A DNA stretch of 63,848 bases, filler included, from Globobulimina sp. (taxonomy: Eukaryota): NCBI GenBank assembly GCA_003354225.1. It is 28 parts of 28 records of this genome, joined end to end, with 100 filler letters (N's around TTAATTAATTAA, not from the genome) between each part and the next. Parts side by side here need not be neighbours in the genome. Positions count along the whole stretch, not along the records: positions 1 to 2,186 come from PIVH01008342.1; 27 more parts are not named here. One strand, given 5' to 3'. This document shows positions 22-34,171 of this stretch, one piece after another. How positions within the stretch are numbered: the stretch's first letter is position 1; the number at the start of each line of letters is the position of its first letter. The notes beneath the pieces are model-generated. The model saw nothing but the letters and a program-made list of their open reading frames with translations, made no database searches and was not told where the DNA came from. The translations under genes were made by a program, and so were the position numbers.

Positions 22-961
22 TCATCGCCCGCTTCCAATCACTCGATACAAAATCTTTCTTTCCCCTGGTAAAAAACCGCGTTTCATTTGGTCAGACTGT
101 AAAGATTGCTATATTTTAATTAACACAAGTAATAAATAGTTATTTTACCTGAGGAACACCGATACTGCTGTCAACCCAAAGATAGAAATAATTACAACCC
201 TCTCGTCGACTGTCTTCTTGAGCCATGTCATATGCATTTTTCACTAAATTATGTTTAGATCGAGTAGCTCCAAACAACTCGCTATTAAGAGTTTTCAAGT
301 AGTATTGATCACGCGATAATGAGAATAAGAAGAGCTGGCTGCAGTTTCGACGTATTGTTATCTAAACAATAAATACCCAACTGTTATAATGCACTGTAAT
401 TTCATATTACATACCCATACTCTCGATCTTGAAGACGTCATATTTTGGGTTAGGATAAACAAAACTATTCTTTGATGGTGACATCGTGCAATGGCACACT
501 CAAGTATCAATTCATTATCTACATAATTACCGACATTTGCGTCATCCAGCTGAAAATGAAAACTGAAGTATAAACGAGCGAGACACAATATATGTAAGCA
601 AATACCAGTATGACACAAACACCATCTTTTGAGTCGCCAATCATAGCCGGGGATAGCATTTCATTGGTTAACTCTTTTGATAGAATACATAATTCATCTC
701 CGTACTGCTTCTTTAATTGAACATGGACCTCTTGTAATGTATTATATATAATAATAATTTTGCGCAGTGGGTCATTTGGATAAATGTCGCTCCACTGTCG
801 AAGTAACTGTAAAAGTGGACTTTAATTCGTGTCTGACAAGTAATAAAACATTATACCGAGAAGGCGAAATGGGTTTTGCCACTTTGGCTTATTCCTGCCA
901 AGATGCTGGCATAACAAAGAGGTGGATACCAATTAATTTCTTCAAACTTTTCTATTGACAT
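22..961 (-). CDS. FtsK/A32-like genome-packaging ATPase (Polinton type), 5 exons, about 242-246 aa
   Basis: Manual splice: exons 961-857, 806-606, 549-415, 361-149, 96(or 108)-22. GT-AG introns 856-807, 605-550, 414-362, 148-97(or 109). Yields Walker A ILAGISQSGKT, Walker B VCVIL|LDD, then CHHQRIVLFILTQN, TIRRNCSQLFLFSLSRD, YLWVD and GFLPGERKILY, the Polinton ATPase motif series, with no internal stops. Confidence 0.88.
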
Positions 962-1527: not shown

Positions 1528-2186
1528 CTATCCATTGACCGAATAATCCAACTCGGGAGTGAAGTTACTGTTGAAGTAGACAGTCGAATTATATTTCTAA
1601 AGAGAACACAGATAAGTATAATTTCGCAACATTATGAAATATGTCTGACATCATTCTCTGCAACTTACAAATATCCAAATGAATGTTGTTGGCAAAGCAA
1701 GGGCTTGCTTCAATTGAACATGAGCTCGCAAGCTACCACTCATGGGTGCTGAATGTACTTGCTTTGGTTGATTAACATAGACACGATGCAGTGAGAATGC
1801 AATGATACCATAACCATGGAACAAATCGTCCATTGAAATACCATTGGACCTATCTGAATTCCACATACCACAAGCTTTTTGAAGCTCAAAAAATTCTTGA
1901 TATGCCTTTCGAGCTGTAGCATCTGGATTAAGCCCAAGTTCTGATGGAAATGCCCTTCCCTCGGTCAGTAGTTTAGCATTTCCAACCATACTTAGATCGA
2001 ATCTGAAATTATTAAATTGTAATCAACAAACTATAGTTACTCACAATTAAAAATTGCATACTCGAATGGAGACAATGCCAAATTTCCATTATAGCGATCA
2101 GTCGATACGATCATCAAATATACCGCATGCGGTAATACGGTTTGTATAGGTAATAAATTCAGATCGACCACTTGAGTCCCTGGTAG
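1528..2186 (-). CDS. Polinton-type double jelly-roll major capsid protein, C-terminal part, 2 introns (5' truncated)
   Basis: Exons 2186-2041 (VLPHAVYLMIVSTDRYNGNLALSPFEYAIFN), 2002-1669 (NGISMDDLFHGYGIIAFSL...GSLRAHVQLKQAL) and 1596-1528 (KYNSTVYFNSNFTPELDYSVNG*). Introns 2040-2003 (GTAACT..TTTCAG, less certain) and 1668-1597 (GTAAGT..TTTAG, contains an in-frame TGA). Confidence 0.8.
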
Positions 2187-2902: not shown

Positions 2903-4296
2903 ATGTACTTTATTATAATGTTTATCATCTGCGATTTCGTATTTGTATTCTTGTTCGATGACACCGACATTAACATAATTAATAACAATCAACACCAGCT
3001 AGAAAATGACAATGATGATTCAGATACTCGCTCATCAATGGATCGACGGTCCAAAATGTCAAGTGTCCAATCAATGAAATATTCAATCTCGCATCCAAAG
3101 GAAACATTGCAATCAATGACCAAGGAAGAGCTTACTTTGATATTTCTTATATTTGTGTCCTATGTAATGCGCTGCAGCCAATATAGCAATAATACCAATG
3201 CATACACAATCATTCACGACATTGGTTATGGAATTGTTCGCTTTTTGACATTTCTTCATATCAATGACTATTATGGGATACGTCCGTATTTATTATCTCT
3301 TTCATTCTTACTATTTCTGCTTCGTGATATTGTGGGATTTTTATATGTTATCACCATTGATGCTCAATTACATTCTATAAACGAAGCATCATTGTTGGTC
3401 ATATTAGTTAATTTTACTACGGATTTCTATTTATTCCACAAAATATTGGCACGGCTAATTTATCCACAGGTGAACGTGTATCATAATGCAATATTAAAAT
3501 TTGAACACAATCATAAAAACATTGATGTGTTTTCTCGTTTTGGAGCTATTGTCGACCGGCCAGTAATTCCATGCTGTTTTGATATCCGATTTGAAAAAAT
3601 AATGGATGTGATTAATTTAATTATTTCTGCATTAAATGTAGTAATTTCGCTATGTTTGATATATTTTACGTTTGATAAAAGATATAGGAAATCATTTTAT
3701 TATTATTCAATGTTAAATTATTTTGCTGTTTCATTCATTGTGCAAAGCTTTCTGATGAAATTCATAAAAACAGGTCAAAATAAAACATTTTCGGCATTTA
3801 AAATCTGGAATATATTGTTTTATTTGAGCGTTTTTCGCTTTTTTAGTTTATCAAAAGATGTTTGGTTTATTTGGGTGAATATTTTGAATAGTTTGTTGTT
3901 TGTAGATTTGGTGATCTTTATTGGAGAACTCAATCATTATAAAAATGATTGGATCAGTAAATTGAGGATATTTGGATGGTTTGATATTACTATGAGGGTT
4001 TAAGTGGACTGCAAGACACTTTGTATGGATCGCAAGCAAATGGATGGAGTGTAATGCTATGGAATTTCGGATTGTTTTTTGAGCAAAATACATATTTTAC
4101 AGTTATCAAATTAGTGATTTTTAAATATATTTGGTGGGATAAGGATCAATTTAGGTTTAAGGATATTATTACATATCAAAAGGAGAAACGCGATAAAACA
4201 AATAATTATGGTGTTAGTGTTGAAGTTGTATGGGAAAAAAAAGCTACACAAAGCGACAATGATGATGATGGACAACATAATGTTAACAACAGCTAA
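2903..4296 (+). CDS. Uncharacterised multi-pass membrane protein, probably frameshifted near 3985-4003
   Basis: Several hydrophobic segments in 2903-4003. Reading continues in another frame (YEGLSGLQDTLYGSQANGW..) into ORF 4021-4296. Confidence 0.45.
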
Positions 4297-9467: not shown

Positions 9468-11117
9468 ATGGAAATAGATTTTGACATTGGTGATTTATCA
9501 GACGATGAAGACGAATTTTTCGTGATTACAAAACCACCGCACTTCGATGTAATGGATGATGAAGACGACGATTTTAAAATACTTCAAGATTACAACAACT
9601 ATGCAGTGGATGAAGCTGATTTTCATACCATTGACGATGACAAAAAACAGCCACAATTAAAGCAAAAAAAACAAACCATGGGCAGGTCATCAGTACCACC
9701 ATCGGCAATGTTAAGTATTGGAGCGAGCAGCGATGAAAAAGCCGTCATAGAAACACCAAAAATGAAGTGTTCAGCCTCCGAATTAGCACCGACGAAAAGC
9801 ACATCCGTATCATCGCGTACATCATTAACCAGATGCAATTCTGTACCAATACGCAAGATGAAATATTACGAAATCAATGGTCTGACCATTTGGAGCAATC
9901 ATAAACGCGATTTAGAAGAATTATATCTGAAAGAAGCCATTTCAAAACAACATAAAAACGCTAAACGAAAATCCAAAAAGCAAATTAAATTTAAAGACAT
10001 GGATATGGAAGAAAGTGATCTTAAATGCACAGCAAATTCCGACGAAAAGGATGATAATTTACGGAGATATTTAATTGGCGAAATTATAGAAACGGAGGAA
10101 ACCTATGTCCGCGGACTAAATACATTGTTGAATGAATTCATCATTCCTCTGTTCGATAAGAAATTAATTAAACACAAATATAAAGACATTCTCACGTGCA
10201 ATATCCCGGAAATTATCAAATTCCATACTTCTTTTTTACAGCATTTAATCAATACCAGTTCACAGCGATCGTTTGAGACTGTTTTTTATGAGTGATGTAC
10301 TAACGAATTTGTGGAAATGTACACAAAATATATTCTGCAATATGACAATATGTTGGATATTTATGCCAAATACAACAAATCAAAAAAGTTGCAGAAATTT
10401 TTTAAAAACAAACGCAAAGAAAAGAAGCCGTTGACCAATCATTTAATTTTACCCATTCAGAGAGTGACTCGCTATTTGATATTATTGGAGGAGCTGAAAA
10501 AGAAAACGGTGGAAACGCATCGGAGCTATACGGAGTTGGAGAGCGTGTTGGAGAAAATTGAAGTGACCGTCAATATGATCAATGAGAGACAGCGCGAAAT
10601 TGAAAATATGTCCCAATGCTTGCAAGTGCAAGAAACTATGAATGGATTGAACCGGAACATTGTGGAGCGACATAGGAAGTTATTGGCACAGTTTGTGTTT
10701 AGAAAGAAGGAGAATCAGAGAGGGAGACAGTTCTTTTTGTTTAATGATTTGTTGATTATTACCAATTTGAAATTAAAAGTAAAGAGTGTGATTGAAATAC
10801 GCACGATTGAGATAAAAAAAATAAAAGAGAGGAATGCGTTTCATTTATTTTCGATTAATCATGAAGCCATTTATGAGACGGATGATGGGAAAAGCGAGGA
10901 TCTACGAGATTTGATTCGGTTGCTTGAGGATAATCGGCAGAGAATACATAAGGAATCCTTGAAGTCTGTGGGTCTGTGTCCAGCCGATATCGCGGCTTTG
11001 TTGACTGGAAAATATTCGTTCTCGCAGGGGAACTTAGCTCGGAAACAGATTGATGTCCAAAAAAAAAGAGCATCATTGCCGTTAAAGGTTTCGTCGAGTA
11101 ATAATGATATTGTTTAA
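9468..11117 (+). CDS. Dbl-family RhoGEF (DH-PH) with one in-frame TGA at 10293-10295
   Basis: RRYLIGEIIETEETYV, LILPIQRVTRYLILLEEL and PH-type RQFFLFNDLLI. The two listed ORFs share one frame: FYE*CTNEFVEMY. Confidence 0.85.
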
Positions 11118-20566: not shown

Positions 20567-21365
20567 ATAATTTGCTAAAGCCCAAAATGCCATTCAGTGG
20601 GGTGCGAATTTCATGACTCATGTTAGCCAAAAATTCAGATTTAATATTACTGGATTCAAGGGCCGAGCGACGGGCTAAATTCAGTTCAATATTTTGTACT
20701 TCCATTTCTTCCAAGGTTTCTTTTAAGTCTTCGGTGGCCTGTTCTATATTGTCCTGTAGCTCCTGCTGGGCAGCGTGCAAACTGGTGGCCATTGAGTTAA
20801 TGCCGTTGGCCAGCTCTTTAAATTCAGTTTGTTCGGGCAATTGAATGCGGGCCTCTAAATTCCCTGATTCTAATTGTTCAAGGGCAGTTGCCACATGTTG
20901 CAAGGGCGTAGTAATTCGAATGCTGGCCCTATACGCTAAATAAAACCCAAACATTATTAAAATAAGCGTAAACAGCAAGGTATTGAGCAGTGCTTGATAT
21001 TGAGCTACCTGAGTGGCAGAGGAATCAAACTCCAATTCAATCCACCCCAATAAATTTGTTTGAACAATGTCGTTAACGGCATAAATGGGGGCTCGTACTC
21101 GAATGCTATTTGAAGTATTAAATTTGTGTATAGGCCCTTCAATAAAACGTGTCGATTGAGTGGGTAGCATGGTCGGGCCCATTTGTAATATTGGGCTTTG
21201 TTCTTTATTCAGTAACGCCAGAGCTCGAAGCTTTGGCAGATCTAAATAAGCTTGCAGTGAGGACTGTATAGAAGGCTTAGGCTCATGGATAAAATGGGCG
21301 GTATGCAAAGCCAGTTGACGGCTTAGAATAATCGCTTGGTCGGTGTCTTGTTTTAAAAGCTGAGC
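20567..21365 (-). CDS. barA: BarA/GacS-family sensor histidine kinase fragment (periplasmic-TM-HAMP-HisKA), gammaproteobacterial type
   Basis: [54 protein letters not shown] and [22 protein letters not shown]. Upstream boundary is approximate. Confidence 0.85.
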
Positions 21366-21450
21366 ATTTGGTGTGAGCTGGATTTGTTAGATCGAAATAT
21401 ATAATACTGAAATACAATGATAAAATGAAATAAAAAAAAAGAACAAAAAC

Positions 21451-31887: not shown

Positions 31888-32034
31888 NNNNNNNNNNNNN
31901 NNNNNNNNNNNNNNNNNNNNNNNNNNNNNNNTTAATTAATTAANNNNNNNNNNNNNNNNNNNNNNNNNNNNNNNNNNNNNNNNNNNNAAGAACCATTCAT
32001 CCGACGTAGTTAAAGTAAGTTTTTGAGCACGCAT

Positions 32035-32096
32035 AATGTTTACCTTATTTGTTGATGCTGAATCTATTATAATACGCTTATGCAACTAATGTACAA
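32035..32096 (-). promoter_or_regulatory. Possible sigma70-like promoter and Shine-Dalgarno for a truncated gene starting at 32034
   Basis: Minus strand TTGTAC-N19-TATAAT (spacer longer than ideal), then TAAGGT shortly before ATG CGT GCT CAA. Confidence 0.4.
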
Positions 32097-32137
32097 CATT
32101 TAATGAATATTAATTATGTTTTTATGTAATTAATAAA

Positions 32138-32158
32138 ATAAAAGGCCCGAAGGCCGAT
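32138..32158 (-). terminator. Putative intrinsic terminator after the primase gene
   Basis: Minus strand GGCC-TTCG-GGCC hairpin followed by TTTTATTTT, just downstream of the stop at 32164. Confidence 0.65.
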
Positions 32159-32163
32159 TAAAT

Positions 32164-34171
32164 TTACAAATCATCTTCATCCAAATCATCGTCAAAGTCG
32201 TCAAGACCGATATTCTTTCTGAGTATCATCTTACGAACTATCCGTTGATGACCACCGCCTTCAGTCACTGTATAACCTAACGCAAGTATGTTGTTTTTAA
32301 AGGTACCTTTGCTAGGAGTGTTACTGGCAAGACCTTGGTCATTGTGCCATAAGTCAAATGCATTATATAAGTCTTTAAAGGTTATATAAACATTCTCTGC
32401 TGTACTGACATCGCAACAGTCTCTTATGAATCCTGTAACTGAGTTAGCCTCATCTAACCATAACTTCTCAGCTGTAGTACAGTCTACTGGTTTGTCAAAG
32501 CAGGCTCTAACTCTAAGACGCCGCAAGGCATCAAGCGCTTTGTTCAATACACCGGGTAAGTCGTGTTTCATTATACGCGGTGCAAGTGAACGGTCAACTT
32601 CATGAACTTCAAATTGTCTATCAAATGGAATGACATTTGCACGTCGTCTTGTACCGTTTGAAATGTCCTTTGCTTTAGGGAAGTAATTGGTCAATAAAAC
32701 AGGACTTGCACAGGACACAAAGTTGAAGGCTTTTTTACCTTTGGGATTAGCTTGAAGTAACTTTCGTTCTGATACCTTTTTTAATAATGAGTCAGGAAGC
32801 ACTGTGTGTGTATCTAAATCATCGTCTAGTATCATTAGTTTACCAGGTAATTCTGCAATAGCGTGATTGTTTCGCTTGGTATCTAAATCATGGATACCTG
32901 TTGCAAGAACAGATTGAGGTCCCATTAAGCCTGACATTACCTCAAGTAACATCGATTTACCGTTTGAACCAAAGCCTTTCATCATCCACCAAGAAGCAAT
33001 GTTTTTATTAGGTTGAATAGTATAACCCATAAATTCTTCAAAGTGTCTGACCATACCTAAAGTGTCTTCTGCATTTTCAAATATCTGCTCAATTGCATCA
33101 TCCCATAGAGGACACTCTGCAAACTCATCATATTCAACTTCAAGGCAGTAGGTGCAGTAAGACTTGTATGTGTGAGGGCGTAGTTTGAATCTTCCGTCAT
33201 TACTTAATACGATTTCCGTATTTTGACAGTTGATAATGGCTTTAGGTGGTTTACTAAATCCAAATACATCGTCATGAACCGCACGAGTGTGTTTCAATAT
33301 TTGTAAACACTGGTTGACAACAACTGTTGTGGTTATCGCAATGCCTATCTTATCGCGTATTTTTTGCCACAATGTTATTATTATACCTCCTATCCATTCC
33401 TGTCTGGTAGGTTCCCAGAACTCGCCATTGTACATCCAGAAGTTATCATCTATATTATAAATGAGATATCGTCCTTTTTCAAACTTCTCATTCAATACAT
33501 AACCTGCTAATATCTCCCCTATGTCCTTCAGAGCACTGTCGTCTATATCCTTCATGATAACCTTAAGCTCGCTCTTAGTATAGCCAGTGGTCTTCTGAAT
33601 GATTTTAAGGCAACGCATTTTAACAATAGCGTCAGAACGCATGGCTGCGTAAAGAGCTTCGCGTAAATCGTCATCAAGTGGACGGTCACACAAGTCTTCT
33701 GCTAATGAAACTGCATCAACAACAGACAGCAAACTTGCAAGCTGAGCAGCTGCTGCCTCTGAGTCAAGAATGATTTGTTCATCTTCATTGTCGAAGTCAC
33801 CGAAGTCCAATTTGGCTTCATATGACTTAACATTAACGCCACATTGTTTTGCGTGGTGAAGTAATGTTCTATGGGTTGCTAAACCTGAGTTTTCAGTATT
33901 AAGACTTTCCCAACGATAACGAATCTCAGGACCGTCATTGACGTATGCAATATCAGATGTAGACCAATCAAGAAATTCTTCAATTCCTTTACCGTCTGTC
34001 GCATAATGAACTGAAGTTAATACTTCAAACCATTTGTCATTGTTATCAAAGTTTGTTATAGGCATTTGTGCAAGTATTTCTTCAATTTCTGCACAGCTCA
34101 TTAAACCTGATGAAACATCTGTAGACGCAGCAGGCCTCTCAATAATCCTTAATAAGGACATAGGACAATGA
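32164..34171 (-). CDS. Phage/plasmid P4/D5-family primase-helicase (PriCT-2 + D5_N + SF3 helicase), 5' truncated
   Basis: WFEVLTSVH..FLDWS..RWESL (PriCT-2), INCQN, CPLWD, Walker A GFGSNGKS, ILDDD and RRRANVIPF. Intronless, with prokaryotic signals nearby. Confidence 0.9.

Follow-up and report, generated by a model that had tools for sequence, protein, structure and literature searches.

Predicted spliceosomal introns in the capsid and packaging ATPase genes of a Polinton/Maverick-type virion module from a Globobulimina assembly

Mavericks of vertebrates and nematodes are integrated multi-copy elements with a core of capsid protein, adenovirus-like protease and FtsK/A32-type ATPase, and the available portions of the relevant reports describe these core genes as free of introns: the vertebrate elements are stated to carry ‘intronless ORFs’ (PMC8097293), while in nematode elements introns occur in captured cargo only (10.1101/2022.07.12.499685). 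The module described here appears to resemble these elements in its core genes, with a candidate capsid protein and a candidate protease beside the ATPase, and probably also in being integrated and multi-copy, but its ATPase and capsid genes are split by six predicted introns. The Maverick-Polinton-like elements of dinoflagellates, as presented in the accessible part of that study (PMC11957031), are similar to the module in possessing short spliceosomal-type introns and in having kept their morphogenesis genes, with introns that belong to young, repeated transposon families and were mostly inserted after integration. The introns of the present module, in contrast, are largely dissimilar to each other, old enough to be shared by divergent elements and variable from site to site.

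Mirusviruses represent another viral realm, with an HK97 capsid and a terminase. According to the available text (PMC12768974), they share with the present module GT-AG introns that are overrepresented in virion-assembly genes and vary between relatives, and these introns have been interpreted as a ratchet that binds the virus to the nucleus; mirusviruses differ in having large genomes and introns near 80 nt, many of which encode endonucleases, whereas the introns reported here are 50-72 nt long, non-coding and located in a small element with a candidate jelly-roll capsid. The punuivirus, an integrated and functional endogenous giant virus of Chlamydomonas, also has host-like spliceosomal introns, which in the accessible section of its description mark latency genes (10.64898/2026.10.09.758095), whereas the present introns lie in a virion module. 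The intron passages of further related papers mention group I introns at most. As set out in the excerpts at hand, both a survey of protist Polinton-like viruses (PMC10120064) and another large survey (10.1101/2025.04.19.649669) employed prokaryotic gene finders on the assumption that introns are absent, and lineages such as the present one are largely invisible to surveys of this kind. A literature search of main texts, in which subscription papers and Repbase reports were thinly represented, returned no paper on spliceosomal introns that are stably inherited in the capsid or ATPase genes of Polintons, the dinoflagellate introners being the only Polinton precedent. The present case is best described as a Polinton-type virion module whose predicted host-type introns differ from site to site within the lineage.

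The DNA analyzed here, referred to as the window, is a stretch of 63,848 nt from the Globobulimina sp. assembly GCA_003354225.1, in which 28 contigs of 2182-2186 nt are joined by identical artificial N spacers; the neighboring contigs are not linked to the element. The element contig is the first of the 28 (positions 1-2186, 35% G+C) and carries on its minus strand, in this order, the 3' part of a capsid gene, a protease gene (1524-964) and an ATPase gene (961-22). This contig is best read as a capsid-protease-ATPase module of the Polinton/Maverick type and would function like the morphogenesis module of such elements, while formal Polinton/Maverick membership hinges on a protein-primed DNA polymerase B, a retroviral-type integrase and element ends, none of which is present on these 2186 nt. 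A read-through search returned six relatives at E values up to 0.001, including the full-length and uninterrupted protein P0006. An ATPase of the P0006 type is also encoded by L001, a 4267-nt metagenome contig which has the same gene order as the module in the window and stops short of the polymerase and integrase genes. Directly upstream of its capsid gene, L001 contains a Lys/Arg-rich frame of 213 codons (294-935) without a Pfam match, possibly encoding a DNA-condensing core protein, and at the contig end (~4140-4267) its ATPase gene is followed by what by eye reads as another, degenerate copy of the 3' end of that gene, representing either a duplication or an assembly error.

Following intron removal, the ATPase gene yields a predicted protein of 242 aa. 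P0006 was grouped with Pox_A32-bearing viral clusters on the basis of both features (0.98) and structure (TM 0.86, from a confident P0006 model in the ESM Atlas), as was P0003, and through its orthologue P0006 the window gene is predicted to encode an A32/FtsK-type packaging ATPase. An AlphaFold model of the window ATPase (pLDDT 50.6) was too poor to add support, and a fold search from this model listed A32-type ATPases among many weak helicase-like matches. In Pfam scans of 9, 3 and 6 proteins, neither the ATPase nor the protease nor the capsid pieces matched a family at cut-off. PDB sequence searches with the protease among the queries gave no match, a homologue search with P0006 as query returned P0006 alone and hence neither a named relative nor a placement of the host, and two viral-contig scans plus a first metagenome scan produced no relative. 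The capsid gene is homologous to that of L001, and its 111-aa exon was placed at 0.95 with Capsid_NCLDV and DJR-like jelly-roll clusters in the ESM Atlas, at a recognition value of 1795, which is below the usual threshold of 2300, and its product is a candidate double jelly-roll major capsid protein. The protease gene is a single open frame (186 aa) without an intron, as the first-pass annotation of this DNA had stated. Two relatives of the protease are 76-77% identical to it, and its His64, Asp84, Gln119 and Cys126 are conserved without exception in four sequences that range down to 31% identity; on this pattern of residues, the protein is a candidate adenain-type cysteine protease.

Table 1. 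Exons and predicted introns of the ATPase and capsid genes on the element contig.
Feature	Positions	Strand	Details
ATPase exon 5	22..96	-	24 codons + stop; P0006 215-236
ATPase intron 4	97..148	-	52 nt, phase 0, acceptor 97; P0003, P0004, P0005 and P0007 (4/4, protein calls) depart from homology there, each with a Val codon
ATPase exon 4	149..361	-	71 codons, RRN motif; P0006 143-214
ATPase intron 3	362..414	-	53 nt, phase 0; absent in P0003, P0005 (protein calls) and P0006; probably present upstream of P0004
ATPase exon 3	415..549	-	45 codons, LDD and TQ motifs; P0006 98-142
ATPase intron 2	550..605	-	56 nt, phase 0, inside Walker B; absent in P0003 (protein call) and P0006, apparently present in P0005 (protein call)
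ATPase exon 2	606..806	-	67 codons, ends in Walker B strand; P0006 31-97, ungapped
ATPase intron 1	807..856	-	50 nt, phase 0, GT-AG; P0008 departs from homology there with Val-Ser
ATPase exon 1	857..961	-	35 codons, Walker A GxxxxGKT; P0006 1-30; P0008 identical at 24/35
Major capsid protein last exon	1528..1596	-	L001 last exon starts with the same five residues
Capsid intron	1597..1668	-	72 nt, phase 0, in-frame stop inside; site of the last capsid intron of L001
Major capsid protein exon	1669..2002	-	111 codons
Capsid intron	2003..2061	-	59 nt, phase 2; absent in L001
Major capsid protein exon	2062..2186	-	cut by contig end

The first-pass annotation had proposed that a packaging ATPase is hidden in this contig by four phase-0 introns, one of which interrupts the Walker B motif, and had suggested an alignment to an intronless relative as a check. 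This proposal was borne out: when exons 1-5 were aligned one by one to the uninterrupted, 236-aa P0006 (with 14, 25, 21, 31 and 11 identities, respectively), all four junctions were free of gap or overlap, and intron 2 indeed lies between the hydrophobic strand of Walker B and the LDD of this motif. P0003 was also tiled gap-free at junctions 2 and 3. The chance of encountering both GT and AG at four homologue-defined junctions is ~1e-6, with ten positions of slack allowed at each. All four ATPase introns lie between codons and none has a length divisible by three. The fourth intron had been given as either 52 or 40 nt, of which the former fits P0006; the 40-nt form (acceptor 109) was rejected, as it adds four residues that overlap this homologue. 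The RRN of exon 4 is presumably an arginine-finger-like motif.

Two introns in the capsid gene had been overlooked, and bring the total on the contig to six short GT-AG introns. For the upstream one, an initial reading as 2040-2003 was abandoned in favor of 2061-2003 upon comparison with L001. The same six bases occur at the exon end (2067-2062) and at the start of the next exon (2002-1997) around this intron; this repeat adds no residues relative to L001 and may be due to chance. Introns of the U2 type are recognized by GT-AG ends and by a gap-free match to a homologue upon their removal, a combination found at all four ATPase and both capsid junctions, and all six are therefore best described as putative U2-type introns.

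The first-pass annotation had pointed to the uniform phase of the ATPase introns, to which the wider comparison lends no special meaning. Four of four in phase 0 corresponds to p 0.05-0.11 at the usual phase-0 shares, and across the lineage seven of 12 distinct positions are in phase 0 (p 0.39 versus one half). In-frame exon skipping had also been raised as a possibility, and nothing suggests that it occurs; each inner exon appears to hold a part of the catalytic core, such that the loss of any one of them would cost the protein some of its Walker B motif, sensor strand or arginine finger.

Comparison of intron positions among relatives, another check proposed at the outset, revealed that these differ site by site. 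The intron states of P0003-P0008 were read from protein calls rather than DNA, some of which possibly stem from partly spliced RNA, while L001 represents unspliced DNA. In relatives at 65-75% identity, homology is interrupted at the very codons where the window introns lie, whereas the ATPase sites are empty in L001 and P0006: the ATPase gene has four introns in the window versus none in L001, where the protease gene is likewise uninterrupted. P0006, P0009 and P0010 form one cluster, i.e., a single intron-free ATPase lineage was found. The L001 capsid gene, in turn, has seven predicted GT-AG introns (six of 57-63 nt and one of 182 nt, in phases 0, 2, 1, 0, 2, 1 and 0). These predictions are based on reading frame and splice signals, and for the last four introns they were also checked against the window. 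The longest of these (2010-2191) encloses a tRNA-Val(AAC)-like gene at 2074-2147, i.e., a tRNA or tRNA-derived repeat within a viral intron. The capsid stretch common to both contains four introns in L001 versus two in the window; only the last occupies the same site, leaving one private intron in the window and three in L001. The ATPase exons of L001 and the window are only 37-47% identical, yet this one capsid intron is shared. Intron density amounts to 5.5 per kb of coding sequence in the window ATPase gene, 3.8 in the window capsid part and 5.2 in the L001 capsid gene. The best reading of these patterns is a slow, site-by-site turnover of introns along the lineage, consisting mostly of gain; for the ATPase introns, too, gain rather than loss is likely, because the core genes of described Mavericks are intron-free.

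We consider it probable that the contig derives from a multi-copy nuclear Polinton/Maverick-type element, whose ATPase and capsid introns are spliced by the host and turn over slowly, mostly through gain. Host RNA polymerase II would transcribe the element in the nucleus, and the host major spliceosome would remove the six introns to give the 242-aa A32-type ATPase and the capsid protein. Introns would be tolerated because of this nuclear transcription, and an insertion with usable splice signals would then be copied along with the element by DNA replication. As this copying would never pass through spliced RNA, there would be little means of intron loss, as in the ratchet proposed for mirusviruses (PMC12768974), and introns would therefore accumulate at one site after another and in one branch after another, to about 4-5.5 per kb of coding sequence. 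On this reading, the lineage would express its late genes in the nucleus.

A more far-reaching version, which we regard as unlikely, is that of a spreading Polinton whose whole virion-assembly module has become spliceosome-dependent, with introns gained gene by gene, partly by self-copying (introns 1 and 4), up to host density, and serving as a ‘self’ mark against silencing. In human cells, the HUSH complex silences intron-free DNA and introns shield against it, according to the available text of that study (PMC8770142); by analogy, and speculatively, introns of the element may aid its expression or shield it from silencing directed at intron-free DNA. If true, such a lineage would be missed by gene callers of the bacterial type. 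In any case, occupied sites in the module can be paired with vacant ones in relatives for four ATPase introns and several capsid introns, and intron gain in a small DNA element is therefore directly testable.

As regards the host, a small animal rich in introns, for example a nematode, has about an even chance; a less favored, though serious, candidate is the foraminifer-like organism to which most of the assembly seems to belong, and any other host is unlikely. The element introns resemble the nematode pattern in being short, in having a T at -5 and in lacking a clear branch site. A T at -5 was found in 12 of 13 element introns versus two of five hand-picked, unverified cellular candidates (p 0.044), constituting a weak lead.

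Unlikely, but the foremost among the competing explanations, is that the introns are old in the lineage and that the empty sites reflect loss through recombination with spliced cDNA. The capsid intron common to the window and the distant L001 is in line with this, as is the absence of two adjacent introns from P0003, a pattern which cDNA-mediated loss would give; furthermore, trees of 6 and 5 rows contain no starred (i.e., well-supported) branch that would speak against it. However, the intronless core genes of described Mavericks imply that gain happened somewhere, private capsid introns occur in the window as well as in L001, and L001 would have had to drop four ATPase introns yet retain seven capsid introns.

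Variant copies of the contig bear on a second alternative, in which the module would be a host locus that is fixed, domesticated or in decay, and would have acquired its introns once integrated, as is the case for other endogenous viral DNA. In run X1, where 0.70 of the words of the contig were recovered, 62 records (contigs rather than RNA) contain many variants, which fits several copies of the element and makes it likely that it is multi-copy. Over positions 1-1000, 30 substitutions are listed in X1, pooled from several contigs that are not independent copies: 11 fall in the 211 intron nt and 19 in exons, the latter comprising 11 synonymous changes at 150 sites versus eight non-synonymous changes at 564 (pN/pS 0.19, binomial p 0.0005), and the ATPase exons of the variant copies are under purifying selection. 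The first-pass annotation had called for both this ratio and a contrast between intron and exon divergence; the former showed constraint, while the substitution rates of introns and exons (5.2% vs 2.7%, p 0.077) do not differ significantly on their own, the intron rate being close to the synonymous rate. Every indel on the list falls within an intron, including six one-letter deletions of a variant copy which are all located in intron 2 and perhaps represent one event, and six substitutions plus one insertion of a variant copy are listed inside the capsid intron at 2003-2061.

The host-locus alternative accommodates the absence of polymerase, integrase and termini from the 2.2-kb contig, and post-integration insertion accounts for ~90% of the tested introner cases in dinoflagellate viral elements, according to the available part of that study (PMC11957031). 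In addition, the longest variant record, the sole one to span both features, has an unchanged intron 3 and an exon 3 with seven changes, five of which are non-synonymous. Against this stand the several variants within one run, the intron sites common to relatives at 65-75% identity, the open frames of all three genes in viral gene order and the pN/pS value, and we regard such a locus as very unlikely. A contig of another study (X2) carries the same variant as the longest X1 record, with parts of introns 2 and 3 present as DNA, and two low-depth contigs of X3, a run with a small word share, seem by eye to keep donor 1668 and acceptor 2003 within diverged flanks, which is a weak observation. X4 and X5, which have the same sample label as X1, gave no matching records, which is no proof of absence. 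All matching runs consist of contigs and contain no spliced joints, an outcome with no bearing on expression. One X1 contig matches the window solely at 115-150, around the donor of intron 4, with unrelated flanks, and probably represents another locus or a chance match.

It is highly improbable that the introns are remnants of an introner family or copies of one another within the element. Introners do occur in dinoflagellate Polinton-like elements, as far as the accessible text goes (PMC11957031), and introns 1 (50 nt) and 4 (52 nt) have a 12-nt word in common, a length reached in one of 500 shuffles (p 0.002 for the pair, ~0.03 over 15 pairs). These two introns agree at 16 of 19 bases (836-854 and 125-143), at a similar offset, and have the same last seven bases. 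Their global similarity (p 0.008 x 15), however, is not significant after correction, the other 14 of the 15 intron pairs in the window are unremarkable apart from one nominal p of 0.02, none of the 78 pairs that include L001 introns stands out (best p 0.013), and, of 38 inverted pairs, the 25 listed include no terminal inverted repeats of any intron. The window introns do not appear to be the many near-identical introns with transposon ends by which introners are known. The original statement that the introns share no obvious similarity thus holds for 14 of the 15 pairs and fails for introns 1 and 4, while its corollary stands, in that a single burst of introners in recent times is unlikely; introns 1 and 4, with a similarity that is borderline after correction, may share an old origin. 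That the inserts are unspliced, random insertions into an ATPase pseudogene is almost certainly wrong: they are known from DNA alone rather than from a spliced molecule, but all six begin with GT and end with AG exactly at homologue-defined junctions, relatives at 65-75% identity are interrupted at the same codons and the exons are constrained.

With respect to the remaining contigs of the window, a stop-free frame of at least 300 codons was detected in 22 of 27, indicating that they are intron-poor, and they possibly derive from other organisms. The notion that the ATPase gene has a higher intron density than the ‘cellular genes here’ is not supported, as those genes lie on 27 unlinked contigs and offer no host comparison. 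Among these contigs are a frame at 31988-34171 that we take to be phage or plasmid primase-like and one at 20567-21386 that is presumably bacterial sensor-kinase-like, and on these labels the assembly would be a mixture of organisms. A further frame, presumably RhoGEF-like, is interrupted at 10293-10295 by one in-frame TGA, which no intron surrounds.
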